Shown: positions 6,741 through 54,160, counted from the first letter of the stretch. The stretch: 64,000 bases of DNA from Diadema antillarum (GCF_040938485.1 NW_027271623.1:147756-211755); one strand, 5' to 3'. The notes: a model not told the origin generated them from the letters alone. Numbers and translations: made by a program.

Positions 6741-6861
6741 CATTTTTACAGCGCATATATCAAATGAATGTTCCCTATGCGCTTTACAATCTCATCACAA
6801 AACATACTGTAAGTAACAACTTACTTTCAATACACACACGCACATGTACACAAAAAAAGTA

Positions 6862-18869: not shown

Positions 18870-18975
18870 TTTGGTATGACGCGGCCGGGGTTCGAACCCA
18901 CGACCTCCCGATTGTGAGGCAGCCGCTCTACTTACTGAGCCAACACATCGGTACATCCGATGTATAGATAATAAT
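18870..18975 (-). ncRNA. Degenerate tRNA-like sequence (possible pseudo-tRNA or SINE head)
   Basis: Reverse complement reads ...GGCTCAGTAAGTAGAGCG (D-arm-like) ... GTGGGTTCGAACCCCGG (T-arm-like), but the anticodon and acceptor stems do not pair. Confidence 0.3.
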
Positions 18976-27215: not shown

Positions 27216-27266
<51 letters not shown>

Positions 27267-32299: not shown

Positions 32300-33720
32300 T
32301 GAGCAGAGAATGTCGAGGAGGATTGAAGAATAGCTATAGATATGAATTCAGAAAAACTAGTTAAGTTTATGCTTAAATGAATAAAGAGACTGAGATTGGA
32401 TTATTTCTCTATCCAACTCATTCCAAAATTTAGGTCCTGTAGTGGTTATTGTTTTTAAAGCAGATACGGTCCGTACAGGAGAAAGATGAAAAGAATCTTT
32501 TTGTCTAGTAAGGTAAGAATGAACTGCAGTATTTTTGACAAACATCGAAGAAAACACATCAGGGAGACCACCTGAGTTTAATTGATCATAAATGACCCGA
32601 TATTGAAATGATATAAATCCTGGATCTTAGATGTTCTACTGGAAAAGAATAAGACATTAGTGTGTTCCAAAAATGTGGCGAAGTTAATTATCCGTATAGC
32701 TCTTTTCTGTATCAATAGTAAAGAATTACGTCTAGTTGTACAGCAGTTTACCCATGCCAGGATTCCATAACCTGTCCCTAAGGCAAAAATAGAGTAGAAT
32801 ACAATGAATGCAGAACATGTTTAGGAAAATACTGCTTTAACTTATACATAACACCTACATTTTTTGATAGTAATTTACGCAAAGAATCAACATGAACTTT
32901 CCATGTCAACTTACAATCAATATAAAGACCAAGGAATTTTATATATTCCACCTGGTTCAATTCCACGTCGTTTACGACCAACTTACCAGGTAAAATATCG
33001 ATTATATTGCTAAAGACCATAAATTTTGTCTTGGTCAAATTCAGTGACAATTTATTAGCCTGAATCCACTTAGATACTGATTTTAATTCATTATTAATGG
33101 TATTTAGTAAAACATGAGGGTTTCGATTTAAATAAAAAATGCTGGTGTCATCGGCAAAAAGTAGAAAATAGAGCAGAGAGGACGAACTGCGAAAGTCATT
33201 CATATAAAGAATAAACGATAAAGGACCTAAAAGGGATCCTTGCGGTACCCCACAAGTTATAGGCTGTGAGCTGGACACATGGCCATTCAAACTAACAAAT
33301 TGAGTTCTTCCAGTAAGGTAACTTCTAAACCACTCCAAGGCCCTTCCACGAATCCCACAGTGTTGTAATTTGTATAATAATATTTCATGGTTGATTGTGT
33401 CAAAGGCCTTGGAGTAGTCAAGAAAGATACCTACTGTGTGACACTTGGCATCGATCGCTTTAATAATTTTCTCTATCATTAGTAAAATAGCATGAATTGT
33501 CGAATGCTTTTTACGAAATCCAAATCGATTATCATCTATTACATTACAGTCGTTTCATAGAATACGCAATCTTTTCAAGTAATTTAGAAAGAGAAGTTAA
33601 TAACGATATTGGTCGATAATTTCCCAGTTCGTCCTCTCGACCCTTTTTATATATCGGGATAACTTTAGTGATTTTCATCCTAGTAGGCACTACACCGTTC
33701 AGTAATGACAAATTAAATAT
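32300..33720 (-). mobile_element. 5'-truncated LINE fragment (RT C-terminal half plus tail) on the minus strand
   Basis: ORF 32778-33479: ...GIFLDYSKAFDTINHEILLYKL...CGVPQGSLLGPLSFILYMND...FADDTSIF... (RT motifs). ORF 32357-32557: ...FKHKLN tail. Degenerate RT continues above 33479. Confidence 0.75.
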
Positions 33721-33725
33721 ATGGG

Positions 33726-33900
33726 CGAGAGGTACAAACCCTAACTCAAACTCCTAATCCTTAACCTAACCGTCACCCTAATCTTTACTGTCACCTTACC
33801 ACTAACCCTTAACTAACCCTCACTCAAACTCCTAACCCTTAACCTAACCGTCATCCTAATCTTTACTGTCACCTTACCACTAACCAGTATTGCCCTCTGC
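33726..33900. repeat. Two tandem ~97-bp units built from degenerate telomere-like CCCTAA/CCTAAC motifs
   Basis: CTCAAACTCCTAA(T/C)CCTTAACCTAACCGTCA(C/T)CCTAATCTTTACTGTCACCTTACCACTAACC repeated twice. Confidence 0.6.
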
Positions 33901-36300: not shown

Positions 36301-36347
<47 letters not shown>

Positions 36348-36352
36348 CGGGA
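36301..36352. repeat. (TA)n microsatellite flanking the LTR element; target-site context
   Basis: Direct reading. A matching (TA)n sits at 53314-53354 on the other flank. Confidence 0.9.
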
Positions 36353-37284
36353 AAATGGGTGTTGTTGCACTGACTACTGGGGGTGGCAGGATGTTTACCG
36401 AGCGGGAATGATACCCCCAATAGAAAGGCACATTTTCCGCAATGGAAGAGAGTTAATTGGTAAGATATAAGGTGCATCAGGTACATTCACACAATTCATT
36501 CACCATCACGATGAGAGGGCTGCAACATAGTTCAATCGGAAGAGCGTATGTTCCGGGCATAAACTGTTATTTTATTGGCAGATATACTTCACGTTGACAA
36601 ACGTACATGATCAAAATGAGTTATGACAGGACTTGCCTAATTACTCTAACAGCATGACACGACGACTTTCGCTAAAGTCCTTAGATTCAAGAAGTCGCTC
36701 CTCGTAAGAAGTAAAGTTCTCTCTATTCACGAAGTCCCACAAAGTTAAGTCCCTTGCTTTGACAGATCAATCGATATTTATACCTCTATGCTCAATGTAT
36801 TTCTTTAAACTTACAAAGGTATTCGGGCAATTCAAATTATGCGGAAACTATGAGGAACATAGAATATTTGGGGCGTATACCTTCATATTAGGTAAAACAT
36901 AGAATTCTTTAGTGGACTATACACAACATAAAATTCCAAACGATGTAATGCGAGGAATGGACAGAATTTACGGAATGTGCAAGGAATGTGTATTTTATCA
37001 GAGATTCAGTCTAGAACGGAAACCCACTTGTTTTGGAATGTGCCCTACTTGGTACTTAATGAGGTAGAGTTATGCCAAATATCCTAGGAGGAGAAACCCT
37101 GGAAAGTGTCAACATGGAGGGGTGTGCTTGGCACGTGCGGAATGTAAACATTGACCCCACGAGAATTCGCTGCGGAGGGTGAGTGGTTTTCATCTACAAC
37201 AAGGCACTTATTGTTCTACATGGTCAGTGCAGGGAGGTGGGTCCCTGGTCAGTGGTTTTCTGCTTATCATATTCGTAACACTAT
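36353..37284 (-). repeat. LTR; the 3' LTR of a minus-strand gypsy element
   Basis: ~932 bp, ~99.7% identical to 52370-53313. Two differences found on reading: TTTTGG vs TTTAGG at 37036/53060, and a 1-bp indel near the end. In minus orientation it reads TGTTACG...CCCGCAACA, giving TG...CA termini. The polypurine tract GGAGGAGGGGAG (minus strand of 37287-37299) abuts its internal side. Confidence 0.85.
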
Positions 37285-37839
37285 CTCCCCTCCTCGGAAG
37301 TCGATGCCCCCATCGACAGAGCGTTAGTGTTTAGGGGACTTGTGGACACGTTTAAATAATACTCACTATTGTATCAATACTAAATGAGCAAACCGGAATG
37401 CAATTTTATCATGGCGTGCGTGACTAAAAGCTCACAAATAGGCTACATAGTACAAACCTAACTCTTTGACCTAATTACTGCATGCTAGTGCGACAAATAC
37501 GAATACGAAATCACAATCATATTAACACAAAAGAATGACATCCAAAACAATGTACATGATATACTCGAATGATTAAAAGATGAGAAAAAGAAAGCAAGAT
37601 AAATAAGGTAAAGAATTCGACATTCGATGGAGACGGACGTGCAACTGTAGACTCTCTCTCGGGTTCTCGGTCTCCGCCCTGCCTCTCGCCTCCTTTTCCG
37701 CATTTTGACAGCAACTGCGCTTGTTTTCTGCTCTCATCAAATTGCCAATATTGTTCCAGTGAAATCTTCCTACCACTAAGTGAATCCATATTGTCTGGTA
37801 CTGCAACTTTCTTCGTTGTCAACTAGAATCTACGACACT

Positions 37840-38697
37840 ATGGCTTCCCGCAAAACCCGACAAACCACTAAGGAACTGAGCGCCACCGCCCAGCCAGCCC
37901 ACTCTGCACGGCCCGAATCTTCAAGCGACAGTGAGCCTGCCGACCTCACGCTGGTCGACATCCAGCGCAGTATTCAACTCTCTTCGGCGAATGTCTGTGC
38001 GAAGCTCGACTCCCTGTCTAGTGAAGTTGCCTCCATTAACAAGAAGATTTCTGACCTCGAGGATTCGGTGACAATGAATTCAGATAAAATCATAGAGATT
38101 GAACAGAGAAAACTACCACAAGTGGAAAAAAAGATGGCGGATGAAATCACCAAGCTGCAGGAAAAGCTCACACTCATGGAGATCTATGGTCGACGCACAA
38201 ATCTCCTCTTCTACGGCGTCGCAGAAGCCCAAAACGAGCACATTGAGGACGTTCTTCGTGATACCTTCACTTACCTGGGGGTCAACGACATCGACAACAT
38301 CGCCATGGTCAACGCTCATCGTCTTCCTCGTCGGGATATCGTGACTCCACACCAAGACTCTACTGGCCCATCCCGTAACACAGTCCCACGTGCTATCATT
38401 GCCAAGTTTGTGTACATGCGTGATCGTAACAGAATCCTGGCCGCCTTCGAAGACCGTCAACGCCAACGCCAACCGCCGGCATCCAACGGTGCCCTCCCGG
38501 ACCAGGACCCCCGAAGGATCACCGTCCGCACAGACCTTCCCCCAGCCTTGAAAGCTAGAAGGAGTGTCCTCGCAAAAGCTGCGTACAACCTCCGGAAAGA
38601 GAAGCATGTGTCCACAAAAATATCGGTGGTAGGTCCAAATGTGTTACTTCACTGGAAAGAGAAAAGCGCCACGAGCTGGAATCTGTTTCAGGATTGA
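37840..38697 (+). CDS. L1-type ORF1p (Transposase_22-like): coiled coil, RRM and C-terminal domain. GC-rich.
   Basis: RRTNLLFYGVAE...PRAIIAKFVYMRDRNRILAAFE (compare L1 ORF1p NLRIIGVPE...PRHIIVKL..KDKERIL). CTD ITVRTDLPPALKARRSVLAKAAYNLRKEK...LLHWKEK. Coiled-coil heptads at residues ~70-145. The given ORF begins 20 codons upstream at 37780. Confidence 0.7.
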   Translation: MASRKTRQTTKELSATAQPAHSARPESSSDSEPADLTLVDIQRSIQLSSANVCAKLDSLSSEVASINKKISDLEDSVTMNSDKIIEIEQRKLPQVEKKMADEITKLQEKLTLMEIYGRRTNLLFYGVAEAQNEHIEDVLRDTFTYLGVNDIDNIAMVNAHRLPRRDIVTPHQDSTGPSRNTVPRAIIAKFVYMRDRNRILAAFEDRQRQRQPPASNGALPDQDPRRITVRTDLPPALKARRSVLAKAAYNLRKEKHVSTKISVVGPNVLLHWKEKSATSWNLFQD

Positions 38698-39411
38698 GCT
38701 TCTAACACGTACTGCTTGTGCTAAACCACTCGAATTTGTTCTCTTTCCCCTTATCCTTTATTCAAATATGTCAATCAGTCTTCTAAGTATATCCTTGTAA
38801 AACTCAATCCTGGTTTTGTAAAAACATAAGACATCCATGTTAACTGAACATAATTGCTGTCATGTTATTTCATAGTTTTGGCTCATGCTGTACATGACGT
38901 ACTCGGCTGCCATTATAGGATTCATGAAATCGTTATACACCAAACCTGCCTTACCTTTTGTCTATTTTGCTACCAAGTATTTTAAGTATATTTTGGTGAA
39001 AATGAATCTTGATGATTGAGATCTGTATCCTTCCTGTGTTCACCTTAAGTAAAATATAATCTTCCGTAAATACACATAATATGTATCTGTACCAGATATA
39101 TTGCTTTGACGACAACTGGTAAATATCTTCGCTTAATGTCTTAATGTTATATTGCACGTGTCGTTCTCGGCTGCCATCCTGGCAGCATGAAACCTATCAC
39201 GACTGCTTATACGCCTTCAAAATTACGCATATTTTTCACGCATACAGACTCTGATACCCTGCTATCAGCTTCTATCAAGGTTTTGTAACACGAATTGGTT
39301 GTATTTCACTTTAACTCAGTCAAGTTACAAACTGAACAAAACTTTGTACATGCTATCTGACTGGGTCGAGGATAGGGAAGGGGGTGGGGGTGGGGGGGGG
39401 GGGGGGGGGGG

Positions 39412-42400
39412 GCTAGGGTGTGTGACCGTAGATACTCCGGGAGTCCGTTCATGATATGCCTGTTGGGAGTCTGTTTTGGATTGCCTTTTTATGTGCTTTA
39501 ACATGCTCGAAGTCAGAGCAAATCCTATTTTTCTACGTTATTTTGGATATATTTTCCTTCATGAATATGTTTCGATCAATTTTCACTTCTCAATGCATTT
39601 CCCGTATACCAACCAACAACTACCGTTTTACTCTGTGTCTCATTTGTTTCTGCTCGCTATTACAAAAAAGCCGCATGTCTGTACATGTATGCAACAAAAT
39701 GCAAGTAGTCTTGATTTATAAGCTATTTGATAACGCCTTCTGGTATAGTCTGGCATTTGAAATTCTCCAATTTAATACTGTTTTTAGGACAAGCTTCATA
39801 TCCTTACTCATTCATGCAACGTGTAGAAAATTCCATGAACCTGCTGTTCCAGTTACTTGTTACGTAACGTTGATACTCGATCAACTCACGCCTAGATACG
39901 ACTGTCAAGGACCTCACTTTGTCATAATGAAACAAACTGTCTATAGAGGTTCCTCATTATTTGGTTCTTTCTTGAAATTTTCCACTACCTGTATACCAAC
40001 CAACTCAGCCCTTGAAATTATATACCTGTCCTTAGTGCGTACTTATACAATTCGCAATGCACACCTGTCACTATCACCTCTTCGGATGTTATCCCACGTA
40101 AACGCCTGCACTTCTGTCATTGCTTATCATTGGAATGTTGTTTTTGAAAATTGTCTCAAAGTGACAGATGGAAATCGAATCTACGAACATGCATTCCTGG
40201 TAAACAACCCATCATGTAACTTGTGTTTGTTTGCCACCAAATATGGCTGAAGAAATTAATGCAAATGTACTTCCTGTTATGAACAACGAAGTATGTGATT
40301 ATCAGTCACCTGTACCAAACTCTCCCTTAACGTGTTCTGATTGTGAAGAAGGCAACAGCACCGATTTTATCACATCTTTAAATGCAGAAACCCAGGAATT
40401 AAATCTGGATTTTGATTTAAATGATATTTCACTGAAAAATGTATCTTCTAATTATCTTTTGGAAAATGATATAGTTACATTGTCTCATTCTAACCCGAAA
40501 GATCTCTTTGTTTCGCATATCAACATCAGAAGTTTGAATAAAAATTTTGATCAATTTCTTTCATTTGTTAACGAGTTACAATTTAGTCACATGATCATTG
40601 GCCTCAGTGAAACTTGGCTAAAGGAAACGTCGCCTTCTTCTCAATACTCCATCAATCGTTTTAAATTGCTTACCAATAACAGAACCGGGAAAAGAGGTGG
40701 CGGAGTAGGTTTTTATGTTTCACAAACTCTGAATTATCAATTGTTACATGAATACAGCATTACCTCAGAATGTATAGAGTGTATTTTTGTGGAGGTTATA
40801 ACTCCGAACAAAGGTAACATCATACTGTGGGAAATTTATAGACCCCCGCATTCTAACCCTACTGAGTTTATTGGGTTGCTTCATGATCTCCTCTCTGATA
40901 AATATTTTGATAACAAGACATGCATTATCATGGGAGACTTTAATATAAATCTCCTTAGTTATAATGAAACTACAGTCTGTCAAGATTTCCTCAACCTTAT
41001 GTTGTCCAAATCCTTCATTCCTTTTATAAGAAAACCTACTCGAATTTCCGATGTCACTTCAACTCTTATCGATAATATATTTGTTAATAATTTATCTCTT
41101 GATGTCACATCTGGCATTGTAGTCTCTGACATTTCTGATCACTTCCCGATTTATACCCTTGTACCTCAGTTTACAGCAAGAAAAACTCCAACATCTAACC
41201 ATGGTATTCGTGACATGTCTGAACGCAATCTAGATAGGCTCAGGGAGGGATTTGGGTCCGTTGACTGGTCTCCTGTCTACAACGCAGGAAATGTAAACTC
41301 ATCCTTTGAGGTTTTTATGAAAATTTTGATAGAAACTTGTGATAATCATATACCTTTGTTAAAACGATCTAAATCTAATTATAAAAGAATACCAAGACAG
41401 CCTTGGATCACGAAATCTCTTCTTAGGTCTATTAATAAGAAAAACAGATTATTTTGTAGATACCGTAAATCCCCAAATGTTTCAACTAAATCTCGTTATG
41501 TTTGTTATCGAAATACCCTGACCTCTACGTTACGCTTAGCTAAGCAACAGTATTTTTACCGACAGTTCGATAGATGCAAATCTGATATACAGAGTACGTG
41601 GAAGGTGATTAACACAGCTTTAAAATCCAGCACTAAGGCGAATTCTCCAAATCGTATTCTGAAAGAGGGTCGCCTGATAGACAATCCAGAGGAGATGGCA
41701 GATGCATTCAATGACTTCTTCGTTAACCTTGGGCCAGATCTTGCCAAGAAAATACCTCGCTCCGGGACACCTTTTTATTCGTTTCTAAGGGATAGGAATG
41801 CACACACTTTGTTTTCTGTTCCCATTGTTGAGGAAGAAATTAAAGAAATTGTTCGCAAACTAAATAACAAGAAAAGTACAGGTGATGACGGAATTTCAGT
41901 TTTTCTGTTAAAAAACATAATAACTGAAATAATTACTCCCCTTACTTATATTTTTAATCAATCTTTGTCGACTGGAAAGGTCCCTGAAAAGATGAAAATT
42001 GCTAGAGTCGTTCCCATATTCAAAAAGGGTGCTGAAGAATCGGTTAGCAATTATCGTCCAATATCTCTTTTAACTTCAATTTCAAAAATCTTAGAAAAGC
42101 TTGTTCACAAACGAACTCTTAGATTCCTTATCAACTGCAATATTCTTTCGAATTTTCAGTTTAGTTTCAGAAAACAGCATAGCACAACCCACGCTTTGTT
42201 AGCTTTCATTGATAAAGTAGCACATGCTTTAGACGACGCTTCCCATACTATAGGTGTTTTTCTCGACTTCTCGAAAGCGTTTGATACGATAGACCATGAT
42301 ATTTTGCTTTATAAGTTAAGCCATTACGGCATTCGTGGGACAGCTCAAGATTGGTTTAAAGACTACCTTACTAATAGAAAGCAATATGTTTATGTAAATG

Positions 42401-44097
42401 GATATGAGTCTCTATTGAAAACAACTTCTTGTGGTGTCCCTCAGGGTTCCCTACTTGGCCCGTTATTATTTATCCTGTACATAAACGACCTCCAAAATTC
42501 GTCCCAGATTCTTTCTTTCATATGCTTTGCTGACGACACAAATTTATTTCTTTCACATCGTAACTCAAACACGCTTATACATATGTTAAACAATGAACTG
42601 AAACTTGTTCAGTCCTGGATCCACGCAAATAAGTTGTCACTAAATATTGATAAGACGCATTATATGCTTTTCAGCAATTCTCTGAACTCTGTTTCTGATT
42701 ATGTTAAGATCAATGGTATCTATTTAAACCAGGTAGATAGTATCAAGTTTCTGGGACTTTACATTGATAGTGATCTATCCTGGAAAACCCATATTAACTA
42801 TTTAAGTAAAATTTTGTCCAGAAACATTGGAATTTTAAACAAGCTGAAATATAATTTCCCCATACGTATATTACAAATTATATATTCAACAATGATTTCC
42901 CCTTACCTCAACTATGGAATTCTAGCATGGGGTAATTCGTCCAAATTTTTACTTGATTCGCTATTCCTTCTTCAAAAACGCGCCATCAGAATTATCAATA
43001 ACGCCGGATATTTATCTCATACAAATGAATTTTTTCACAAGAATAAAATTCTGAAATTGATTGATTTGTTTGATTACAATCTAGGTATTTTCATGTATAA
43101 GTACTCAACGAATGATCTTCCTGATGTTTTTCTTCACATGTTCAAAAGAAACTACTCAGTTCACAATTATCCCACCCGCCAACGGGACGCTTATCACCTT
43201 CCACGTACTCGCACAATTTTCGCGATGAAAACAATTATGTATGCGGGACCGAAATACTGGAATGACCTCCCCCCTGAACTCAAAGGTTGTTTATCACTAT
43301 CATCCTTCAAATGCAAATTAAGACAGTATTTATTGAATAATTACGCTACATCAGCTCATTGAAATTCTGTTTTGTGCTGTCCAGGACTATCCCGTTATAC
43401 TGTACTCCAGGGTTGTTGTCATGTAAAACCAGACTTTAAGAGCCCAGCTGTTTGCGCCCTTAAATTCTATCACTGTGTTTATGTATATTTTTCCTTCTTT
43501 AAAGATAGCTGGGACGAGAAAACAGCTGGTATTTCACATTCTCACTGCACTGCAACTGGTTGTTCGATGTTTTTTTTAATGGATTTGCAGGTGCATGTGT
43601 TCCCTTCTTAATACACGCAATGTACACATTTCTAATACTGTCTGAACGGTATCATTGTTATTATAACTATATTAAGTCATATTGTATTGCCAGAACGACA
43701 ATGGTTCATCCGCCTATATACAGCATGTGGCTTTTCCGATCCCTAACCTGCACTAGAGAAGAATTTTGTTATATAACTGTATATTTGTACTTTTTTATTC
43801 ATTTTTTTGTTTTTCTCTTATGTTCCGGTCATTGTTGTACCCGTGCTCCCCTTCTCAATCTTAAACTCGTTTTTAACCGGGACCTACGCTCAACAAGCTC
43901 GCTTTTTAAGTAGGTTCCTTCATATTTCTTTAGCATTCATTCACAGATTCCAAACTGAACAGATCGACCACTATTATGTTTTACATATTTGCAATATTCT
44001 ATGTATGTCATGTATTTCATTTAATTTTGTTATATTTGATGTAATTTTTCATCGAGAAATATGAAAATAAATTGAAATTGAAAATTGAAATTGAAAG
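39412..44097 (+). mobile_element. Full-length-looking AT-rich LINE (CR1/L2-like by its ORF2 tail), nested in the LTR element in opposite orientation. Boundaries are approximate.
   Basis: A poly-G tract at 39378-39411 precedes it. The intact ORF2 is at 40231-43362. The 3' region ends in short tandem AAATTGAAATTGAAA repeats at ~44060-44097. Confidence 0.55.
40231..43362 (+). CDS. LINE ORF2: 1043-aa apurinic/apyrimidinic-like endonuclease plus reverse transcriptase, uninterrupted
   Basis: APE/EEP N-terminal domain (…LFVSHINIRSLNKNFDQF…IIGLSETWL…GGGVGFYV…SDHFPIY…). RT motifs (…FRKQHSTTHAL…FLDFSKAFDTIDHDIL…GVPQGSLLGPLLFILYINDL…FADDTNLF…). Conserved CR1/L2-type tail (…YPTRQRDAYHLPRTRT…GPKYWNDLPPELK…FKCKLRQYLL). 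Confidence 0.9.
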   Translation: MPPNMAEEINANVLPVMNNEVCDYQSPVPNSPLTCSDCEEGNSTDFITSLNAETQELNLDFDLNDISLKNVSSNYLLENDIVTLSHSNPKDLFVSHINIRSLNKNFDQFLSFVNELQFSHMIIGLSETWLKETSPSSQYSINRFKLLTNNRTGKRGGGVGFYVSQTLNYQLLHEYSITSECIECIFVEVITPNKGNIILWEIYRPPHSNPTEFIGLLHDLLSDKYFDNKTCIIMGDFNINLLSYNETTVCQDFLNLMLSKSFIPFIRKPTRISDVTSTLIDNIFVNNLSLDVTSGIVVSDISDHFPIYTLVPQFTARKTPTSNHGIRDMSERNLDRLREGFGSVDWSPVYNAGNVNSSFEVFMKILIETCDNHIPLLKRSKSNYKRIPRQPWITKSLLRSINKKNRLFCRYRKSPNVSTKSRYVCYRNTLTSTLRLAKQQYFYRQFDRCKSDIQSTWKVINTALKSSTKANSPNRILKEGRLIDNPEEMADAFNDFFVNLGPDLAKKIPRSGTPFYSFLRDRNAHTLFSVPIVEEEIKEIVRKLNNKKSTGDDGISVFLLKNIITEIITPLTYIFNQSLSTGKVPEKMKIARVVPIFKKGAEESVSNYRPISLLTSISKILEKLVHKRTLRFLINCNILSNFQFSFRKQHSTTHALLAFIDKVAHALDDASHTIGVFLDFSKAFDTIDHDILLYKLSHYGIRGTAQDWFKDYLTNRKQYVYVNGYESLLKTTSCGVPQGSLLGPLLFILYINDLQNSSQILSFICFADDTNLFLSHRNSNTLIHMLNNELKLVQSWIHANKLSLNIDKTHYMLFSNSLNSVSDYVKINGIYLNQVDSIKFLGLYIDSDLSWKTHINYLSKILSRNIGILNKLKYNFPIRILQIIYSTMISPYLNYGILAWGNSSKFLLDSLFLLQKRAIRIINNAGYLSHTNEFFHKNKILKLIDLFDYNLGIFMYKYSTNDLPDVFLHMFKRNYSVHNYPTRQRDAYHLPRTRTIFAMKTIMYAGPKYWNDLPPELKGCLSLSSFKCKLRQYLLNNYATSAH

Positions 44098-44998
44098 AAT
44101 CAGAGGATTCGAAGAAAGAAGAAAGGATAGAATTAAGATAGGGAAAAGGCAAAACATCGACGGTTTGAATAATTATTGTCACGTATGAACATTTTTCTAA
44201 TTCTAACAAATAAAGAAACATTAACTTAAATACGACCATCAGGTATGCACTACATAGATGTTGAACTTTACAGTACGAAATGATCGCAGCCTCAGTATAA
44301 TCTAACTGAACGTCAAAGACACATAAAAACATAAAGCGCATAAGCAAGTAAATTTGAAAAAGAAAACAAACAAATGCATCATAGGGTATACCGAGTGCCA
44401 GGTGTACCGAAATGTTATCCATGAATTTTGTCAGGCGAATGACAGCTAGGCCACTTTCAAGAAGATTGTGTCCAATGGACAGAGTTGTTGGAGAGAGGTA
44501 GGAAGACAGAGAGGAGAAGGCAATAAATGGGGAACGGAGAACATGGAGTAAACCGTGGACTATAAAAATCGAAACATAATCGTTAACGGGGCACTCGTTT
44601 CCCCAAACGCCTAAGAAAACTAGAAAAATAATCGCTATGAAGTCGTAAAAGGCTTGTCGCGATAAGACGACTAATAGAGGGAGCTAAAAAACATAAATCC
44701 GACGAACTGGGTACTGCACTAAACTCATTGTAAGAACAATTAAGTCACGAATATAAACTGTCAGTCGAACTTCCACTATCGGCACAAGATTATACATTTA
44801 AATACATATTACATACAACTGTAAACTGCGATATAAATGCTGGAGACTATTCAAAATAAAGAACACATTTAAAAACAACAACAATAACGGCAGAAATGCA
44901 TGAGCACAAGATCATTATACTGTTCAATTTGTCAGGACCAAGTTAGTGCAGATCAGTGCTTTCAACATGAGGCATAAAATAAATGATACTATATCTTC

Positions 44999-45002
<4 letters not shown>

Positions 45003-45040
<38 letters not shown>

Positions 45041-45046
45041 TTGTGT
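45003..45046. repeat. (GT)n microsatellite, with (GA)n nearby at 45125-45170
   Basis: Direct reading. Confidence 0.9.
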
Positions 45047-46003
45047 AGGTATAGGTAAAGCTGGTTAATCGTAATACGACTAATAACCGATATAAGCTTG
45101 CAAAATCATGACGTGTTCCAACCTCAAGAGAGAGAGAGAGGGAGAGAGAGAGAAGAAGAAGAAGAAAGACATAGTTAGGTCCTCTAACTGATTGTCACTT
45201 ATAAAAAAAAGGAAGACGTCGAATGTAATGCTAATTACAATTGTACCCTGTTTTGCTGTTGTTGTTGAACATTTATGGGTACTTGACCAATTTAACACAA
45301 TCACAGTAAGTTACCAACGGTACTTGAAAATAAACATGTAATGATTCATCCATCCGTGTCATTTAATTGACTAAAACTCTCTACTAATTCAATACATGAG
45401 AAGACATGATTTTACATTTTCAAATAAAACATGGCGAGTGCTAGACGACCCGGCTGAATGAGCTGGCAAAAGTGGAATAGAATAGCACATAGGGTTCCTC
45501 CTAGCTACAATAGAATATCAGCCAGCAAGTTGATATACTTAAGTTTTCATTAAAATATATTCTAATTAACTTGAATGTCCACATTTCATAATTATGGAAA
45601 CTCTTAGCTTTTAACGAAATGCTCATTCAACTTTGTGGATGGGGAAGAACATGTATTGTCCCTAATAATCCCAGCGGGGTTTTTTTTTTTCTTAACATAT
45701 CGAATATATTTACAGAGACATATTTTATGCGAGTGTACAGTCCAATCACCTCCATAGAATACACGGCATCACACACACAAAAAAAAAGATTAAAAAAAAA
45801 ACGGACCAATTACAGATCTGTGTCGCAGTCCAGTCCACGTTTTCGCTATACACTTGGAACGATCCAGCAACGTTCATGGCAACAATGGCGCATCACATTC
45901 ATCGTTCTTGAATCGGCTCGAATATGATCCGGTCGAAAGAATAATGAACAGAACAAAAAAAAAAACAAAAAACCAACAAAAATATGTGTATCCGCTGAAA
46001 GGA

Positions 46004-46528
46004 TTAATCCACAAGATCTTTAAGAATGTCGGACGCTCGTTTTACTTCATTTTTATGCTTCGAGATTGCAGCTGCCAAAAAGTTTACACCACTTGCAAAA
46101 TCCTGCTGGACAGCCGTCGTGCACTGGAGTCGACCCTCGCGTTCATCGTCCAGGCGGGCATGCAGAGACCTGACATCGGCGCGGATTGCTGCCATATCGT
46201 TCTGCAGCTTCATTTCCAGAGACTTCACCGCAGACAGGATAATGTCAAGTTTGTCATCCTCGAGGACAGAAGTGGTAACGTTGTCTGCTTTCCTCTTCCT
46301 GTTGTTTTCCGGCATCGGTAGGGCGGAAGGAAGAAATATCTGCTCTCCGGGCGATGACGACGACCCAGGCTGCGGCGTCGACCTAGTCATGTGTCCCCCA
46401 TGGTACCGCACATTTCGGGATGCCGAAGTTGACGCCAATGCTGAATTATAGTCGGGAGGAGACCTTGACGTGTCAGCGGGGCTGACTGGAGAAATCAATG
46501 TCATGTCCAGGTAAGACATGGCTGGCAT
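46004..46528 (-). CDS. ORF3 (174 aa) downstream of pol within the gypsy element. Serine/proline-rich N-terminus, predicted coiled-coil C-terminus, function unknown.
   Basis: GC-rich like gag-pol. Same strand, starting 136 bp after the pol stop. No recognisable catalytic motif. Confidence 0.4.
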   Translation of the reverse strand: MPAMSYLDMTLISPVSPADTSRSPPDYNSALASTSASRNVRYHGGHMTRSTPQPGSSSSPGEQIFLPSALPMPENNRKRKADNVTTSVLEDDKLDIILSAVKSLEMKLQNDMAAIRADVRSLHARLDDEREGRLQCTTAVQQDFASGVNFLAAAISKHKNEVKRASDILKDLVD

Positions 46529-46663
46529 AAAAAAAACAGTTTATTTTGGATTAAAGGGGAACCGGATGAAAGAAGGCCAGTGGCTTAAAGTGCTTAATGG
46601 TCATACACAGGTGGTCGTGGGAGCGTGTCAATTCCTTCAGGCACGAGACTGAAAGTGACCCTA

Positions 46664-49600
46664 TCACCATCCGAATCGCTGTGGGGGTTGAGACTGTCGC
46701 GTGCTGCGACGGGGGCTAATTGTATCCTTGGGATTAGTCTGCGTTCCGGCCTGACGTTTCCCTGGATCGCCTCCATCTTTCAACTTCCGAGCTAAATTCG
46801 CGATCCATGGTGGAACATCGGTGCTGGTATATGGTTTCAGGCGGTCATGATGCAACAATTTAGTCCTTCCCGCCTGTTTGATTCGAATTTCAAAGTTCAG
46901 GTCACTTAATTTTCTAATCACTACGTAGGGACCGACCCATTTACATGGATTTAGCTTTGGTGAAAGTCCCTTTTGTTTCGTGGAGTCTAGAAAATACACT
47001 AAGTCACCTGCTGCATAGTTATTTACCGTCAGTCTCGCATCATAGTTCTTTTTCTGTCTTTCCTTCGCTTCGCTTATGTGTTCCCTCGCTATGCGCGAAG
47101 CTTCCGTCATGGTTGCAACGATGTCGGCTGCGTGATCGTGCGGGGCATTGCGTTCGTGGTCGTTTTCTGGACGATCAATTCCGAGTGAAACTTCGATCGG
47201 CGTGCGTGCCTCCCTTCCCAACATGAGAAAATTGGGGGAGAAGCCGGTTGTCTCGTGTATGGTGCCCCGGTACGCAGATGTTAATAATGATAGATTTTCG
47301 TCCCAGTTCTGTTGTTTCTTGTCTACATATGAGGCAATCATGTCAACCAAAGTCCTATTGAAACGCTCGATCATCCCATTTGATGACGGATGGTACGGGG
47401 AGGTCCTGGTTTTAGATATTTCCAGTAATTTGCATATGTCCTGAAAGAGTGCAGATTCGAATGTCCTTCCCTGGTCAGTATGTATTTCCAGGGGTGTCCC
47501 GAAACGAGCTATGAACTCCCTTACGACCACGTCCGCGACTGTGGTGGCCGTTTGGTCGGGTATGGCGTATGCCTCTATCCATTTCGTAAAGGTGTCCCCG
47601 ACTACAAGGACAAAGCGATTCCCATTGTTGCTTATAGGGAATGGTCCCATGATGTCCATGGCGATGCGGTCCATTGGGGCACCCGAAGTATATTCACCAA
47701 GAGGCGCCCGCGGTTTCGACGACGGCCTTTTTCTCGCTCCGCAAGTCACACAGTTTGCGAGAAAAATACGAAGTGTCTCTTTCATGTTCAGCCAGTAAAA
47801 ACTACGTTGTAGTTTGCTAAGAGTTTTCTTCAGTCCTAAGTGCCCAGATAAGGTCGATGCATGGCTTGATTTCATTACACGATCACGAAGTTTCTCTGGC
47901 ACAACGAGCTGCAGTCCCGCTGTGAGCTTACTGTTCGTGTAATTTCGCTTATATAACAGTCCATCGACCATTTGCAATTGATTCCATAACAGCCACAAAT
48001 TGCGAATTGCTGGGCTCTTGTCGTGGACACGGCTACGAGTTGGTCGCTCTGTAGACTCTGTCAACCACCCGTAGATGATTCCGATGTCGGGGTCCTGTTT
48101 CTGCATTGCGATCAGTTCTGCACGGTCGAGGTTGCCAAGAAGAAGTCTCTGCGGCCCGGAAAAATTTCCAGCGACGGCGTCTGTGTCGGAGACGCAGGGC
48201 AGGTCATTGTTCTGTGCAACGTCAACAGCGTTGTCGCGATCATGTTGTGCCTTACTACCACGTGACTTTGACGCACTCTTCGCACTAAACATTCTCAAAA
48301 CTACATTCGGGGCTGGCCATAATCCCCGTCTCAAAAACTGCGTTGCGTCCCATACATTAACTAGATACACGTGTACTCCAAATAGGCACATTAATCCACA
48401 TAATACCAAAGATCGCGCGTCCGTGATCGACAATGAAATGAGAAATAGGACAAAACAAAGGGCGATGACTGCATGAAAAATTAGACCAGCACATCTTCTC
48501 AACATGTCAGGGCGTGTAGAAGTAGAAGTCTCATGAGTTTGGCTTTCGCGCTCTTCCTTCGGAGGAGTGTGACACACTTCCACTCTTTTTGCTGAGAGAG
48601 GAACAGTGTCGTCCTCGTCAAAGAAGTCGACCCACTCACGATGTCGTCGTCGGCATGTAGAACATCCACCACAAGGTAGCTGCTCGAGTATCAAAGTCCC
48701 ATCAAAACAGTCACATGAATCGGGGTCACACGACACGCGCGATAGCGAGTCTGCATTGCCATGCTTCTTCCCCTCTCGATGCTCGATGGCGAAATCGAAT
48801 TGCGATAAGATCTCTAGCCATCGGGCCATTTGGTCAGTTGGTTCACGGAAGGACATAATCCAGCGAAGAGAGGAGTGGTCAGTTCGAATAAGGAATTTCC
48901 GCCCAAATAGAAAGTGACGAAAATGGCGGACGAAGGCGACCACGGCCAGGAGCTCCCTCCGTGTTGTGCAATATCTTCGCTGAGTTCGTGTCAGAGAACG
49001 ACTAGCAAACGCAATAGAACGCTCAATCTCCTTCTGGGCGGACTCGTCCCACTGCATTTGAGATAGCACTGCTCCTATGCCGTCTGCGGAAGCGTCTGTG
49101 TCCAAGATGAATGTACCGACGTCGTTCGGGTAGGCCATTACGCTGTCACCCATGAGCGCTTGCTTCAACTGTTCGAACCCAGACTGGCACTCGTCGTCCC
49201 ATTTGAAGCGGACTGATTTCCCCAGTAGCTTGTTGAGTGGGGATGCTATAGTGGAAAATCCCCGAATGAAGCGGCGATAATATGAGCAAAGGCCCAGAAA
49301 AGATCTCACATCACTCACCGATGACGGGGTCGGCCAGTCTGCAATTCGACGTACCTTCTCTGGATCGGGCTTTATTCCCGCTTCGCTGACGACATGTCCG
49401 AGATATGCCACTTCGCTACGAAAAAGCTCGCACTTGCTCGGTTTAAGTTTCAGTCCAGCCGAGCTCAGCCTAACAAGGACCTCGTCGAGACGTCGTATGT
49501 GTTCGTCGAACGTCGAGCCCATGACGATGACGTCGTCCAGATACAAAATTAATGTTTTCCATTGTAGTCCTTTCATGATAAGCTCCATTGCACGCTCGAA

Positions 49601-50920
49601 TATGCCAGGCGCGTTGCACAAACCAAACGGCATAGTAACATACTCATAGTGACCAGTCCGTGTGCTGAACGCCGTTTTCTGTCGATCCTCCTCCTTTATC
49701 TCTATTTGCCAGTAACCGGACTGGAGGTCGAGAGTGGAGAAAAGTTTCGCCCCACCCAAACAGTCCAGGCAGTCTTCGATTAATGGCAAGGGATAAGCGT
49801 CTTTCTTGGTAACATCGTTTAGCTTGCGGTAGTCTACACATTGTCGCGTAGATCCATCGCGTTTTCGCACATATACGAGAGGACTCGACCACGGACTCGT
49901 CGATTCGCGAATGATACCAGCCTTAAGTTGCTCGTCGATAATCTTCTCCTCCTCCCCCTCGAAGGCACGAGGCGGACGGCGTGGTCGTTGCTTAATTGGC
50001 TGAGCATCACCCGTGTCGATAGTATGCTGGAAGACTGATGTGCGGCCGTGGTCAGATGGCGAAGAAGCAAACACTTTAAGATGTTTTTCGATTAAATTCG
50101 AGAGCTGCTCGCATTCTTCATCGCTGAGACCAATGATGCTGCGATCATAAAGCTCTTTTACTCCATCAGGCCAACTGCTGGCGTCGATATTGTCAGAAAC
50201 AGTCAGTTTGTCAATGCGGGCTGACGGGGAACGTTCGTGGTCGACGATGTCGGGCACCACACTTACGGACTCGATGCTAGCGATGCGTGTGCCCGCGAAC
50301 AACTGAATGTCATCAAAGTTGGTATTCGCCACACGAATTGGTATGTCGATGTCTCGCCGGCAGACATCGACAAGGCAGTGGGCGACGTGCACAGGTATCT
50401 CAACTCCTCTAATTGGCTCTACAATGGCATAGGACGCTTGGCGTGTGAACTCAGTGTCAATCGTCTTTCCGGCAACAATGCACTCTGAATTTGCCGGTAC
50501 CACTATATCGCTCTTCACATAAACATTAACAACGTTGACAATAGCATTATCTCCATCATATTCAATCGGAAATAATTGATCACCGATGCGAAGACCGCGT
50601 CTAGCCTCCAGGCTGCAATTGAAATGATGCAAAAAGTCGAATCCCAGGAGACCATCATCGGCAACATCAGCTACATATGCATTCCACTCAAAAGGCTTAT
50701 CCCCCAGTCTCACACAAATTTTAACGCATCCATAAACAGAGAGAAATCCATTGTCCGCTGCTTGAAGCTGAATATTTTCAACTAGCTGCTGCATAACTGG
50801 GCGCGAATGGTGGGGCATACGTTCATACAATTTTAATGAAATAACAGTGACCGCTGCACCAGAGTCGACCAACAGCTTAGCGTTCACGCCACTAACATCA
50901 GCTTTAACAAAGGCTGACAT
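46664..50920 (-). CDS. pol: Ty3/gypsy Pol polyprotein (1418 aa): aspartic protease, RT, RNase H, integrase (HHCC zinc finger, DDE core, GPY/F C-terminal module)
   Basis: PR: LLVDSGAAVTVIS. RT: …YLDDVIVMG…. RNase H: …DTDASADGIGAVLSQ…. IN: H-x4-H…C-x2-C (HASTLSGHLGLKKT…CVTCGARK), D…D…E (IAMDIMGPFP / VLVVGDTFTKW… / IHTDQGRTFES), and …CKWVGPYVV…. Confidence 0.92.
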   Translation of the reverse strand: MSAFVKADVSGVNAKLLVDSGAAVTVISLKLYERMPHHSRPVMQQLVENIQLQAADNGFLSVYGCVKICVRLGDKPFEWNAYVADVADDGLLGFDFLHHFNCSLEARRGLRIGDQLFPIEYDGDNAIVNVVNVYVKSDIVVPANSECIVAGKTIDTEFTRQASYAIVEPIRGVEIPVHVAHCLVDVCRRDIDIPIRVANTNFDDIQLFAGTRIASIESVSVVPDIVDHERSPSARIDKLTVSDNIDASSWPDGVKELYDRSIIGLSDEECEQLSNLIEKHLKVFASSPSDHGRTSVFQHTIDTGDAQPIKQRPRRPPRAFEGEEEKIIDEQLKAGIIRESTSPWSSPLVYVRKRDGSTRQCVDYRKLNDVTKKDAYPLPLIEDCLDCLGGAKLFSTLDLQSGYWQIEIKEEDRQKTAFSTRTGHYEYVTMPFGLCNAPGIFERAMELIMKGLQWKTLILYLDDVIVMGSTFDEHIRRLDEVLVRLSSAGLKLKPSKCELFRSEVAYLGHVVSEAGIKPDPEKVRRIADWPTPSSVSDVRSFLGLCSYYRRFIRGFSTIASPLNKLLGKSVRFKWDDECQSGFEQLKQALMGDSVMAYPNDVGTFILDTDASADGIGAVLSQMQWDESAQKEIERSIAFASRSLTRTQRRYCTTRRELLAVVAFVRHFRHFLFGRKFLIRTDHSSLRWIMSFREPTDQMARWLEILSQFDFAIEHREGKKHGNADSLSRVSCDPDSCDCFDGTLILEQLPCGGCSTCRRRHREWVDFFDEDDTVPLSAKRVEVCHTPPKEERESQTHETSTSTRPDMLRRCAGLIFHAVIALCFVLFLISLSITDARSLVLCGLMCLFGVHVYLVNVWDATQFLRRGLWPAPNVVLRMFSAKSASKSRGSKAQHDRDNAVDVAQNNDLPCVSDTDAVAGNFSGPQRLLLGNLDRAELIAMQKQDPDIGIIYGWLTESTERPTRSRVHDKSPAIRNLWLLWNQLQMVDGLLYKRNYTNSKLTAGLQLVVPEKLRDRVMKSSHASTLSGHLGLKKTLSKLQRSFYWLNMKETLRIFLANCVTCGARKRPSSKPRAPLGEYTSGAPMDRIAMDIMGPFPISNNGNRFVLVVGDTFTKWIEAYAIPDQTATTVADVVVREFIARFGTPLEIHTDQGRTFESALFQDICKLLEISKTRTSPYHPSSNGMIERFNRTLVDMIASYVDKKQQNWDENLSLLTSAYRGTIHETTGFSPNFLMLGREARTPIEVSLGIDRPENDHERNAPHDHAADIVATMTEASRIAREHISEAKERQKKNYDARLTVNNYAAGDLVYFLDSTKQKGLSPKLNPCKWVGPYVVIRKLSDLNFEIRIKQAGRTKLLHHDRLKPYTSTDVPPWIANLARKLKDGGDPGKRQAGTQTNPKDTISPRRSTRQSQPPQRFGW

Positions 50921-51003
50921 ACCTGAATGTCTGTTGATTCTTATTATCCTATTCGGCGCAGTCGAGTGTCGGGCCGATCCCTGGTCGATGAGGTCGGCCC
51001 GCT

Positions 51004-52173
51004 CTAGTTTCCCTGTTGTGTGGATGGCTGGTGACTGGGAGGTGGGGGCTGCTCATGCTCAGGCGACCACGGCTGCTGAGGCACAAACGGTGGTGGGGGT
51101 GGTGCCCACGCTGGCTCCGGTTGAGGTTGTTGACGGGGTTGTTGCCGGTGTTGTTGCCACTGTTGCTGCCACGGTTGTTGTCCTCGATATGCTGTTTGTC
51201 CCCAGGCATCCCGTGCAAACCGTTCATTCTGACGACAATTTCTGGCTATGTGTCCCAGTTTCTGGCAATTATAGCATCGCACCGGTGCTCGACCACCGTT
51301 TCCTCCTCGCTGCCCACATGGTGCTTTTTGCCGATTGCTGCCCACATCACTAGCCTTGTCTTCCGGTAATAATCCGGCAAACTTGTGTTCTATTGCGTCC
51401 ATCACGCGTTTTTCGAAAGAAGTGAGGCGCTCCTCAATAACATCGGTCGCCGTCGTCGTTCCCGTGATTGACCTCACAGGCCTCCTCACGGACTCCTCTC
51501 TCAGGTTCATGTACCTCTCCGCTATTTCCATAGCAACCTGCAATGTTTTGGGCTCATGCATCCCAATGGCTAGAGTCATTCCTCCATCGCATAGCCCTCT
51601 GAGGAAATGTCGCACGGCAATGGTTTCGGTGGTTGCCGGGTCCGCGGTTGGATAACCGAATTTTGACAGCCGGCGGATGTCGCCGGCGTACTCTGAGATG
51701 GGTTCTCTCGTTCCTAGGCGGCGCGCCTCAAGTTGGGTGATGTACGGTGTCGCGCTCTTTCTCGATGAGAATCTCTCTGATAGCGCCTTTATGAGTTTGA
51801 CATCGCTTTCGGTGGCATCAGCTGGTAATTGTTGGAAGGCGAAGTCGGCCGCGTCCCCTCGCAACGAAGCTAGCAGCCGAAATCGCCTCTCCCGTGAGTC
51901 CCATTTACACGCGTCGCTGAGATTGTTAAAAGCAGACAAAAAGCTCTCCCATGAACGTGTCCCGTCGAACAATTCCTGGTTTGGAATTTGAACACGCCGC
52001 CGCCTTTGGTCGTCAGGTAGTATCGAAGCACCGGCATCTGTTTCGTCGTCGGTCGATTCTGCCCCCTCTTCCACGCTGACCGTGGATTTTTGAAGGTCGC
52101 GCCTCGCCTGATCCAACTCCTCACGGAGTTGCTTCAGTTCACGCTGGAGATCCGCCTTTCTCTTTGGAGGCAT
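51004..52173 (-). CDS. gag: Gag (389 aa) with a CCHC zinc knuckle and a Gln/Pro-rich C-terminus
   Basis: CYNCQKLGHIARNC. Basic coiled-coil N-terminus MPPKRKADLQRELKQLREELDQARRDL. Stop lies 84 bp upstream of the pol start, in a different frame, so frameshifting or readthrough is expected. Confidence 0.85.
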   Translation of the reverse strand: MPPKRKADLQRELKQLREELDQARRDLQKSTVSVEEGAESTDDETDAGASILPDDQRRRRVQIPNQELFDGTRSWESFLSAFNNLSDACKWDSRERRFRLLASLRGDAADFAFQQLPADATESDVKLIKALSERFSSRKSATPYITQLEARRLGTREPISEYAGDIRRLSKFGYPTADPATTETIAVRHFLRGLCDGGMTLAIGMHEPKTLQVAMEIAERYMNLREESVRRPVRSITGTTTATDVIEERLTSFEKRVMDAIEHKFAGLLPEDKASDVGSNRQKAPCGQRGGNGGRAPVRCYNCQKLGHIARNCRQNERFARDAWGQTAYRGQQPWQQQWQQHRQQPRQQPQPEPAWAPPPPPFVPQQPWSPEHEQPPPPSHQPSTQQGN

Positions 52174-52369
52174 GTCGATTTTTGTTGATGTCGTTGAGGG
52201 AACAGATATAAAACTTGCTATGTCAGGCGCGTGTTGAAGTCACTATATCCCACTCCTGACACCAGTGTTGCGGGTGGGGGTGGTGCCCACGCTGGCCATT
52301 GTCCGCTGCTTGAAGCTGAATATTTTCAACTAGCTGCTGCATAACTGGGCGCGAATGGTGGGGCATACA

Positions 52370-53307
52370 GTGTTGCGGGAAAATGGGTGTTGTTGCACTG
52401 ACTACTGGGGGTGGCAGGATGTTTACCGAGCGGGAATGATACCCCCAATAGAAAGGCACATTTTCCGCAATGGAAGAGAGTTAATTGGTAAGATATAAGG
52501 TGCATCAGGTACATTCACACAATTCATTCACCATCACGATGAGAGGGCTGCAACATAGTTCAATCGGAAGAGCGTATGTTCCGGGCATAAACTGTTATTT
52601 TATTGGCAGATATACTTCACGTTGACAAACGTACATGATCAAAATGAGTTATGACAGGACTTGCCTAATTACTCTAACAGCATGACACGACGACTTTCGC
52701 TAAAGTCCTTAGATTCAAGAAGTCGCTCCTCGTAAGAAGTAAAGTTCTCTCTATTCACGAAGTCCCACAAAGTTAAGTCCCTTGCTTTGACAGATCAATC
52801 GATATTTATACCTCTATGCTCAATGTATTTCTTTAAACTTACAAAGGTATTCGGGCAATTCAAATTATGCGGAAACTATGAGGAACATAGAATATTTGGG
52901 GCGTATACCTTCATATTAGGTAAAACATAGAATTCTTTAGTGGACTATACACAACATAAAATTCCAAACGATGTAATGCGAGGAATGGACAGAATTTACG
53001 GAATGTGCAAGGAATGTGTATTTTATCAGAGATTCAGTCTAGAACGGAAACCCACTTGTTTAGGAATGTGCCCTACTTGGTACTTAATGAGGTAGAGTTA
53101 TGCCAAATATCCTAGGAGGAGAAACCCTGGAAAGTGTCAACATGGAGGGGTGTGCTTGGCACGTGCGGAATGTAAACATTGACCCCACGAGAATTCGCTG
53201 CGGAGGGTGAGTGGTTTTCATCTACAACAAGGCACTTATTGTTCTACATGGTCAGTGCAGGGAGGTGGGTCCCTGGTCAGTGGTTTTCTGCTTATCCATA
53301 TTCGTAA

Positions 53308-53313
<6 letters not shown>
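52370..53313 (-). repeat. LTR; the 5' LTR of the minus-strand gypsy element
   Basis: Near-identical to 36353-37284. The outer flank is (TA)n at 53314-53354. Confidence 0.85.
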
Positions 53314-53358
<45 letters not shown>

Positions 53359-53774
53359 GAGCATATAATATTCTATAAAAAATCAACAAAGACAAGAAAA
53401 TTACATATCATCACAATACTGAGTATCATTGAATGGTATTTGGCAATATAAAAGGAAATAAGTTGTTACAGCATTCAATACAAAACGATGAAATGGATGC
53501 CTGCTAAATTATAAACTGATGGGAGTATTGGATCCCATGATCTAATTATGCAAGTTCATTCTTTTTTTTTTTTTGAACATGAATTCCTAAATTGTTACAA
53601 TGAGCACTATGTATTATGTCGCTTTGAATTGAGTGAAGTGCCGAATCAACTGAGAGAAAAGAGAGGTCATTTGTACCAATGTGTACATGAGCTACAGTGT
53701 AATTAGGAACTGGCTTATTACCCTACATGGACGTCTAAATAGGCACTGAATTGATCAGTGTTTTAGTAGTAGCC

Positions 53775-53900
53775 ATGATAAAAAATTCATGGGCGTATAT
53801 ACTCAAGCAGTATTCGAAACCTAAGACCTCCTGATCACCGGACAGGCGTCATCTCCATTAGACCACCGAGCTTTCGCCCAACAGCAAGTGTTGGTTCTAA
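53775..53900 (-). mobile_element. tRNA-derived SINE copy, first unit of a ~285-bp tandem duplication
   Basis: …GTATTCGAAACCTAAGACCTCCTGATCACCGGACAGGCGTCATCTCC… is homologous to 7790-7905. The preceding 80 bp (…CACTGAATTGATCAGTGTTTTAGTAGTAGCCATGATAAA…) is repeated at 54010-54060. Confidence 0.6.
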
Positions 53901-54054
53901 TCCTTATAGCATGCAGCGGATACTGCGTAATTATTCAAATTCATGAAATTCTTCCGTTGAGATGTTTTCTGTGCAACTGATTGACAGATTGCCCTACATC
54001 AACGTAAACAAGCACTGAATTGATCAATGTTTTAGTAGTAGCCATGATAAACAA

Positions 54055-54160
54055 ATCATGGGCATACATACTCGAGGAGGATTCGAACCTAAGACCTCCT
54101 GATCTCCGGACAGGCGTCATCTTCAGTAGACCACCGAATAAGGATTGGAACCAACACATG
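54055..54160 (-). mobile_element. tRNA-derived SINE copy, second tandem unit
   Basis: …GGATTCGAACCTAAGACCTCCTGATCTCCGGACAGGCGTCATCTTC…. Confidence 0.6.

Follow-up and report, generated by a model that had tools for sequence, protein, structure and literature searches.

How does a retrotransposon whose two long terminal repeats (LTRs) are almost identical come to carry both a foreign element in reverse orientation and an abnormal leader? The question is raised by a 64,000-nucleotide stretch of DNA from Diadema antillarum (GCF_040938485.1 NW_027271623.1:147756-211755; hereafter the window), in which a 17-kb composite Ty3/gypsy element lies in minus orientation embedded in a TA repeat, with a long interspersed nuclear element (LINE) nested backwards in its tail region. 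An earlier note on this DNA had concluded that such a copy arose either by recombination between copies or by gene conversion of its LTRs. In this study I argue that neither is needed, and that everything seen is very probably explained by one young Ty3/gypsy insertion in a (TA)n microsatellite, followed by the nesting of a LINE in it. A simple nested insertion suffices because the LINE is canonical, full-length and has family-typical ends, and the leader turns out to be a self-templated patch of the element's own pol and gag. A single Ty3/gypsy copy of about 10.5 kb would have integrated, in minus orientation, in the microsatellite, after which a full-length, coding-intact LINE would have inserted antisense in its 3' untranslated region (UTR) via target-primed reverse transcription.

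The LTRs, measured from TG to CA, differ in the alignment at two places, a substitution that sets T at 37034 against A at 53062 and a 1-bp indel with an additional C at 53296/53297, an identity of 99.8%, in agreement with the two to three differences first estimated. The direct repeats previously given as 932 and 944 bp are real, but their lengths are 938 and 939 bp, the left start at 36353 having been set 10 bp too far in; the minus-strand termini TGTTAC...GCAACA are read in the sequence as had been reported. A comparison of the window with itself, also proposed in that note, recovers the LTR pair by self-BLAST as 36337-37284 versus 52365-53313, with 99.6% identity over 949 columns, chance flank matches included. 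Beyond the LTRs proper, the four bases CTAT (37281-37284 and 53310-53313) are common to both repeats on the U3 side. One substitution in 938 bp gives a divergence K of about 0.001, which, with an assumed rate of 1e-9 to 1e-8 substitutions per site per year, places the insertion roughly 0.05-0.5 million years ago. The two differences in 938 bp of LTR thus bear out the claim that the element is young.

The outer flanks of both LTRs are TA tracts, as claimed, and TRF delimits them as (AT)21 and (TA)22; the two are in phase and of nearly equal length, and excising the element together with a duplication of 4, 5 or 6 bp leaves an uninterrupted (TA) tract some 40 units long. The composition of the insert sets it apart from its surroundings, with a GC content of 42% in the LTRs and 50.7% in the coding block 46004-52173 against 33-38% in the surrounding DNA. 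The figure of about 55% once given for gag and pol together applies to gag (55%), while pol has 49%; ORF3, a small reading frame downstream of pol, has 52%.

On the minus strand the element reads 5' LTR, primer-binding site (PBS) leader, gag, pol, ORF3, polypurine tract (PPT, GAGGAGGGGAG+ATAG) and 3' LTR, and it is structurally intact, with all coding and cis-acting parts present, as the earlier note had held. In gag, Pfam identifies a zf-CCHC knuckle (aa 299-315, E=1.6e-6) and a weak match to Ty3_capsid, below cut-off. In pol it finds the complete series of protease (PR, aa 5-99), reverse transcriptase (RT, 351-510), RNase H (RH, 574-708) and integrase (IN), the latter with a zinc finger (1007-1065), a core (1082-1178; integrase span 1007-1195) and a GPY/F module (1330-1363), so that the described domain content is fully recovered. 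The PPT is present at the left LTR as predicted, though one base differs from the string first given.

The gag-pol junction has a compact architecture of its own. In the gag frame, a slippery heptamer G_GGA_AAC (51013-51007) makes up the final two codons before the stop TAG (51006-51004), and five bases beyond the heptamer begins an 8-bp GC-rich hairpin (51001-50970) with a minimum free energy of -24 kcal/mol (z=-2.0). The pol frame is -1 to that of gag and overlaps its end. All three parts, the hairpin having an invariant TCGACCAG loop segment, recur where gag meets pol in all six related loci that I compared (for example at 9806 in L001, 5014 in L003, 6119 in L010 and 8316 in L011), and two of the nine hairpin pairs show double, compensatory changes among them. 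This is an intact standard -1 frameshift cassette, which would yield a Gag-Pol fusion. The invariant loop may also pair downstream as a pseudoknot.

ORF3 encodes a protein with a disordered N-terminus, a basic patch and a coiled-coil-like C-terminal part. It is homologous to a 186-aa reading frame that stands right after pol in two of the relatives, L003 (9611-10171) and L004, with 27% identity (E=3e-10); no such frame was found in L001, the closest relative. Pfam at E<=5 yields no envelope-like match for ORF3, only coiled-coil noise, and the translation is devoid of any long hydrophobic stretch.

The relatives come from a search of a 5.8-billion-protein collection. The closest Pol proteins, 74%, 72%, 65%, 64% and 61% identical, are all from metagenome contigs, and the matches that carry organism names belong to marine invertebrates such as Holothuria and Pinctada. 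Four of the six related loci (L001, L002, L010 and L011) stem from ENA ERZ26222911, and the other two (L003 and L004) from ENA marine metagenome assemblies, that of L003 being from Tara Oceans. At the 5' junction these six show an LTR ending in CA, then 1-2 nt, a PBS of the form TGGTG(G/T)CAG..GTGGGAT and the leader motif ACTTCAACACG; at the 3' junction they show GGAGGAGGGG(G)ATAG followed by TGT(T/C)ACGG. The PBS of the window copy, TGGTGTCAGGAGTGGGAT, is identical in L010, and the other relatives have TGGTGGCAGCGGTGGGAT at the same place (GCGCTG in one unit of L002). It looks like a tRNA-Leu type, apparently complementary to tRNA-Leu(CAG) at its 3' end; ARAGORN finds no tRNA gene in the window that might confirm this, and Rfam only three weak tRNA-like matches within repeats resembling short interspersed elements (SINEs).

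These junctions bear on a further doubt, namely that the left LTR might belong to another element. The window, L001 and L002 are alike in having PPT, ATAG and TGT(T/C)ACG in succession, and since the PPT+ATAG+TGTTACG that adjoins the left LTR is the canonical 3' junction of the family, this LTR belongs to the same kind of element. The assignment is made from related elements and not from sibling copies of the same genome. Without the LINE the element measures 10,487 bp, as compared with about 9.65 kb in L001 and a 9.6-kb unit plus LTR in L002. The latter locus (ctg978355_3x_c, 1-18132) consists of head-to-tail units with a period of 9,608 bp and a single LTR between units; its contig name ends in 'c', and either a tandem array or a circle could underlie it.

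The nested element is also a complete one. The reverse-orientation LINE had been recognised correctly, but it comprises 6,474 bp rather than 6.7 kb. Its ends are placed where the near-identical metagenome copies L005 and L006 part, just upstream of TTCAATGGAGACGG and just after the (AAATTG)n tail; this tail is common to L005 and L006, degenerate in L009 and missing from L007. Both reading frames are uninterrupted, and Pfam assigns to ORF2 an AP-endonuclease (Exo_endo_phos, aa 98-304) and a reverse transcriptase (RVT_1, aa 598-844), with L1 ORF2p and R2 as best PDB matches. In L005, L006 and L007, all from marine metagenomes, homologues of ORF1 and ORF2 stand on single contigs in the same order with a spacer of 1.4-1.7 kb, and in the window LINE as in the related ones ORF1 has about 50% GC versus about 35% in ORF2. 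As the related LINEs share the ORF order, the spacer and this contrast in GC, the window LINE is one canonical element and no chimera. Its best public relatives reach 78% identity in ORF1 and 68% in ORF2; the ORF1 homologues with organism names are all from sea urchins, at 33-47% identity. An initial classification of ORF1 as L1-type (Transposase_22) was dropped, no Pfam match being obtained even at E<=5. A 264-aa frame at 39456-40250, which has neither a Pfam match nor a tblastn match in L001-L004, was treated as spacer; the LINE relatives have frames at the same position. The spacer also contains a 33-nt G-rich homopolymer-like tract (39380-39412, plus strand), and that of L007 a G9 run.

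There remains the abnormal leader. Between U5 and the PBS, 105 nt have been added, made up of a patch of 72 + 21 nt and a second copy of the 12-mer CCCGCAACACTG. On the minus strand the LTR ends in CCCGCAACA and is followed by CTG, a 73-nt copy of pol that overlaps this G, a 21-nt copy of gag, and CCCGCAACA-C-TGGTGTCAGG; both copies are exact, and at the three junctions the overlap with the donors amounts to 1, 1 and 2 nt. The PBS is therefore 105 nt away from the 5' LTR, yet a duplicated U5 end precedes it. The 3' LTR, in contrast, has no patch, and the TA tract begins directly after its terminal CCCGCAACA. As the 3' LTR is free of it, the patch is no older than this copy, which did not inherit it; the argument relies on the standard model of reverse transcription, by which a patch in the RNA ahead of the primed PBS would enter the strong-stop DNA and with it both progeny LTRs.

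The patch was most likely made by serial template switching of the element's own RT at a faulty plus-strand transfer. After 2 nt of the PBS the growing strand would have quit its template, copied first 73 nt from pol and then 21 nt from gag, and landed again 10 nt upstream of the PBS, thereby duplicating CCCGCAACACTG, either during the making of this copy's cDNA or afterwards. What favours RT over repair is that the exit, 2 nt into the PBS, falls where plus-strand strong-stop DNA must change template, and that both donors are sense-oriented and the element's own. Template switching in repair or replication after integration, by polymerase-theta end joining or microhomology-mediated break-induced replication, would sit well with the 1-2 nt of microhomology at the junctions, with donors only 1.2-1.5 kb away and with the short direct repeat that flanks the insert. 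I consider it about half as likely as switching by RT, as it would have to account for an exit exactly at the U5/PBS boundary, for two donors both in sense and both from the element, and for a re-entry that restores a complete U5 end beside the PBS; moreover, templated inserts made by polymerase theta are typically shorter than the 73-nt piece and come from closer donors. The patch preserves in the genome a trace of serial template switching where U5 meets the PBS, and since the 3' LTR is without it the event can be assigned to this copy.

Table 1. Features of the composite element and its flanks (positions counted from the first nucleotide of the window)
Feature	Position	Strand	Source
(AT)21 microsatellite, outer flank of 3' LTR	36301..36342	.	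TRF, sequence
3' LTR, 938 bp, TGTTAC...GCAACA on minus strand	36343..37280	-	alignment, self-BLAST
Polypurine tract region, CCGAGGAGGGGAG + ATAG on minus strand, abutting the TG of the LTR	37281..37297	-	sequence, relatives
Probable proximal 3' untranslated piece between PPT and LINE 5' end	37298..37622	-	position
Full-length LINE, 6,474 bp, antisense to LTR element, 5' end TTCGATGGAGACGG	37623..44096	+	relatives L005/L006
LINE ORF1, 285 aa when begun at the start codon matched in relatives; mechanical ORF from 37780	37840..38697	+	ORF, relatives
LINE ORF2, 1043 aa, uninterrupted	40231..43362	+	ORF, Pfam
LINE (AAATTG)n tail	44056-44096	+	relatives
AT-rich non-coding stretch between LINE tail and ORF3 stop, with (TG)22 and (AG)13	44097..46003	-	TRF, composition
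ORF3, 174 aa	46004..46528	-	ORF, relatives
pol, 1418 aa from first ATG; frame open from 51052	46664..50920	-	ORF, Pfam
-1 frameshift cassette	50970..51013	-	sequence, folding, relatives
gag, 389 aa	51004..52173	-	ORF, Pfam
Primer-binding site TGGTGTCAGGAGTGGGAT, 18 nt	52247..52264	-	sequence, relatives
12-nt U5-end/PBS-start repeat CCCGCAACACTG, second copy; canonical junction LTR CA + C + PBS	52263..52274	-	sequence
Exact 21-nt copy of gag 51094-51114, 21/21	52275..52295	-	sequence
Exact 73-nt copy of pol 50748-50820 (protease region), 73/73	52296..52368	-	sequence, self-BLAST
First copy of the 12-nt repeat: last 9 nt of 5' LTR + next 3	52368-52379	-	sequence
5' LTR, 939 bp	52371..53309	-	alignment, sequence
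(TA)22 microsatellite, outer flank of 5' LTR	53311..53354	.	TRF, sequence

Several observations weigh against a single insertion followed by a nested LINE. An exact look-up of gag found no sibling copy, and the best protein relatives are at most 78% identical; exact-pattern scans for the U5-PBS junction and the U3 start in metagenome contigs, and for the PPT-U3 junction and the U5 end in genome contigs, all in collections that do not contain the host genome, likewise returned none. The target-site duplication of the LTR element is unreadable because the flanks are a dinucleotide repeat, and a single, unexplained C (53310) stands between the CA of the 5' LTR and (TA)22. It is either a substitution or a base kept from the junction of PPT and U3, the 3' LTR having the same base in front of it, and on its reading depends whether the duplication has 4, 5 or 6 bp. 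The patch could, as discussed above, come from DNA-repair synthesis after integration. For the LINE the only candidate duplication is weak, AAAGAAT at 37610-37616 and 44094-44100, with its left copy 6 nt from the LINE 5' end, in an A-rich context and with an estimated chance probability of about 0.1; no target-site duplication was accepted for the LINE, as there are only 6-7-nt matches in A-rich context.

A final point of this kind concerns the two non-coding segments between ORF3 and the PPT, which have no match in the window or in the relatives, so that the larger of them, of 1.9 kb, may not be native. A sensitive BLASTN of 44097-46003 versus the 3' regions of five relatives found nothing significant, a comparison that is uninformative because the relatives barely match each other there. 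Both segments are probably the native 3' UTR of the LTR element.

The main alternative is that the LINE was already inside the parent, the 17-kb composite having retrotransposed as a unit, in which case the LINE would be older than the LTR identity suggests. The antisense LINE promoter and tail need not stop the transcript of the LTR element, the LTRs are almost identical despite an insert of 6.5 kb, and all cis-elements for another round are intact. However, there is no second copy to show it, the genomic RNA of 16 kb would far exceed the elements of about 9.6-10.6 kb in the relatives, the six AATAAA and five ATTAAA signals that the LINE offers in the sense of the LTR element could truncate that RNA, and the LINE is itself intact and hence plausibly a recent arrival, all of which makes this history improbable. 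That the composite is today a replicating unit, with an intact LINE as antisense 3' UTR cargo and a patch that would give its progeny LTRs of 105 bp more, I regard as quite improbable; if true, LTRs could lengthen directly in this way and one retroelement could spread another.

The two explanations offered at the outset, recombination of two copies or LTRs homogenised by gene conversion, would deprive the LTR identity of its value as a date. The leader is indeed abnormal, and rearranged copies do occur in the family, as in L001, which has no clean target duplication, and in the head-to-tail units of L002. Nonetheless, nothing seen needs a second copy: the outer TA tracts are in phase and almost equal in length, both LTR-internal junctions are canonical for the family, and the patch is 100% identical to the element's own gag and pol, which points to a templated insertion and not to an exchange of segments. 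I therefore hold an origin by recombination or conversion to be very improbable. An artefact of the assembly, by which two loci or haplotypes were joined via the LTRs or the TA repeats, is hardly to be credited; misjoins do tend to fall in long identical repeats and in microsatellites, but the internal order is coherent from PBS to PPT, both ends of the LINE lie in non-repetitive sequence, and the LTRs differ at two positions and so have not been collapsed. A young Ty3/gypsy insertion with a LINE nested in it later thus stands as the preferred account of the locus.

Judging by the sequence, both the LTR element and the LINE are probably active. The copy could still replicate, because a full U5 end would have been restored beside the PBS, and in that event its progeny should have LTRs 105 bp longer; extended-LTR progeny, if they exist, would be proof of the competence of this copy. 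The 105-nt spacer, which is probably tolerated, and the antisense LINE could each impair it.

A preference of this LTR family for TA tracts is unsupported, as L001, the sole relative whose two flanks are both present, lies outside TA repeats and has no clean duplication. Elsewhere in the window, (TA)n tracts at 4870-4925 and 27208-27370 edge a repeated family (222-2734 resembling 24818-27203, and 5016-5802 resembling 26457-27267), and TA microsatellites in this genome may often be parts of older repeats and not free-standing. A short repeat family (53717-53869, 53988-54140, 7789-7904 and 18877-18949), which on the minus strand matches tRNA in Rfam weakly, at 30-36 bits, is probably a tRNA-derived SINE, two tandem copies of which lie 0.4 kb from the 5' LTR. 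Two degraded LINE copies, at 28862-30875 (plus strand) and 32363-33735 (minus strand), show 37-49% identity in ORF2 to the nested LINE and have frame breaks; since these related copies stand just upstream of the element, the LINE superfamily has long been present at the locus.

A further observation concerns the linker of about 300 aa between RNase H and integrase (47903-48796, minus strand; pol aa 709-1006), which contains, besides a Cys-rich motif (CDPDSCDC...PCGGCSTC), a pair of strongly hydrophobic stretches at aa ~806-860 (about 48340-48505), with a 19-residue hydropathy of up to 2.75. By their predicted hydropathy, these stretches look like a transmembrane hairpin. Among 92 scorable Pol relatives, 32 show a hydrophobic stretch (hydropathy >=1.9), the linker spanning 240-330 aa in almost all of them; the stretch is absent in more distant relatives whose linkers measure 140-200 aa. 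A limited literature search found no description of such a segment in a Pol linker, yielding just an errantivirus paper on another matter.

The known working of these elements is left unchanged by the present findings. The domain order PR-RT-RH-IN and the top match among solved structures, Ty3 Gag-Pol (7q5b, E=1.8e-119), which is far ahead of caulimovirus and retroviral enzymes, confirm the assignment of the host element to Ty3/gypsy (Metaviridae); its integrase follows the RT, unlike in Ty1/copia. With yeast Ty3 it shares TG...CA LTRs, PBS, PPT, a CCHC gag, a PR-RT-RH-IN pol with GPY/F and a frameshifted Gag-Pol, and it differs in having the additional small ORF3 and the long linker between RNase H and integrase. 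The chromodomain of chromoviruses is not detected among Pfam families at E<=0.01, the integrase C-terminus having the GPY/F module only, and the envelope reading frame of errantiviruses and other env-carrying Ty3/gypsy elements has no counterpart. Its metagenome relatives resemble it in gag-pol layout, PBS type, GGGAAAC with stop and hairpin, PPT with ATAG and TGT and, in L003 and L004, ORF3; none of them has the LINE or the leader patch, and their non-coding regions and LTRs fail to align with those of the window.

The LINE, with its ORF1 and an ORF2 that combines AP-endonuclease and RT, recalls the AP-endonuclease-type LINEs with a tandem-repeat tail (CR1/L2/Rex1-like), a likeness by tail type only, and its family is marked by an unusually long ORF spacer of 1.4-1.7 kb and by a GC-rich ORF1 versus an AT-rich ORF2. 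In retroviruses, aberrant strand transfers and non-homologous switches give rise to patch insertions or deletions near U5/PBS. The leader described here resembles such cases in being a patchwork of own sequence with short microhomologies at an obligatory strand-transfer site; unlike them, it is a fixed genomic copy and not the outcome of a single-cycle assay, and RT is its likelier author.

Nesting of retroelements is commonplace, and both elements are undescribed families of well-known kinds, so that the value of the locus lies mainly in annotation, as a clean and complete reference copy for an undescribed Ty3/gypsy family and an undescribed LINE family. In nested insertions, such as LINEs in LTR elements or the layered LTR elements of maize, younger elements lie in older ones, preferentially in non-coding parts and antisense. 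Compared with the usual cases, host and guest here both look very young and are coding-intact, a combination that is less common, though not unusual in a transposon-rich genome.

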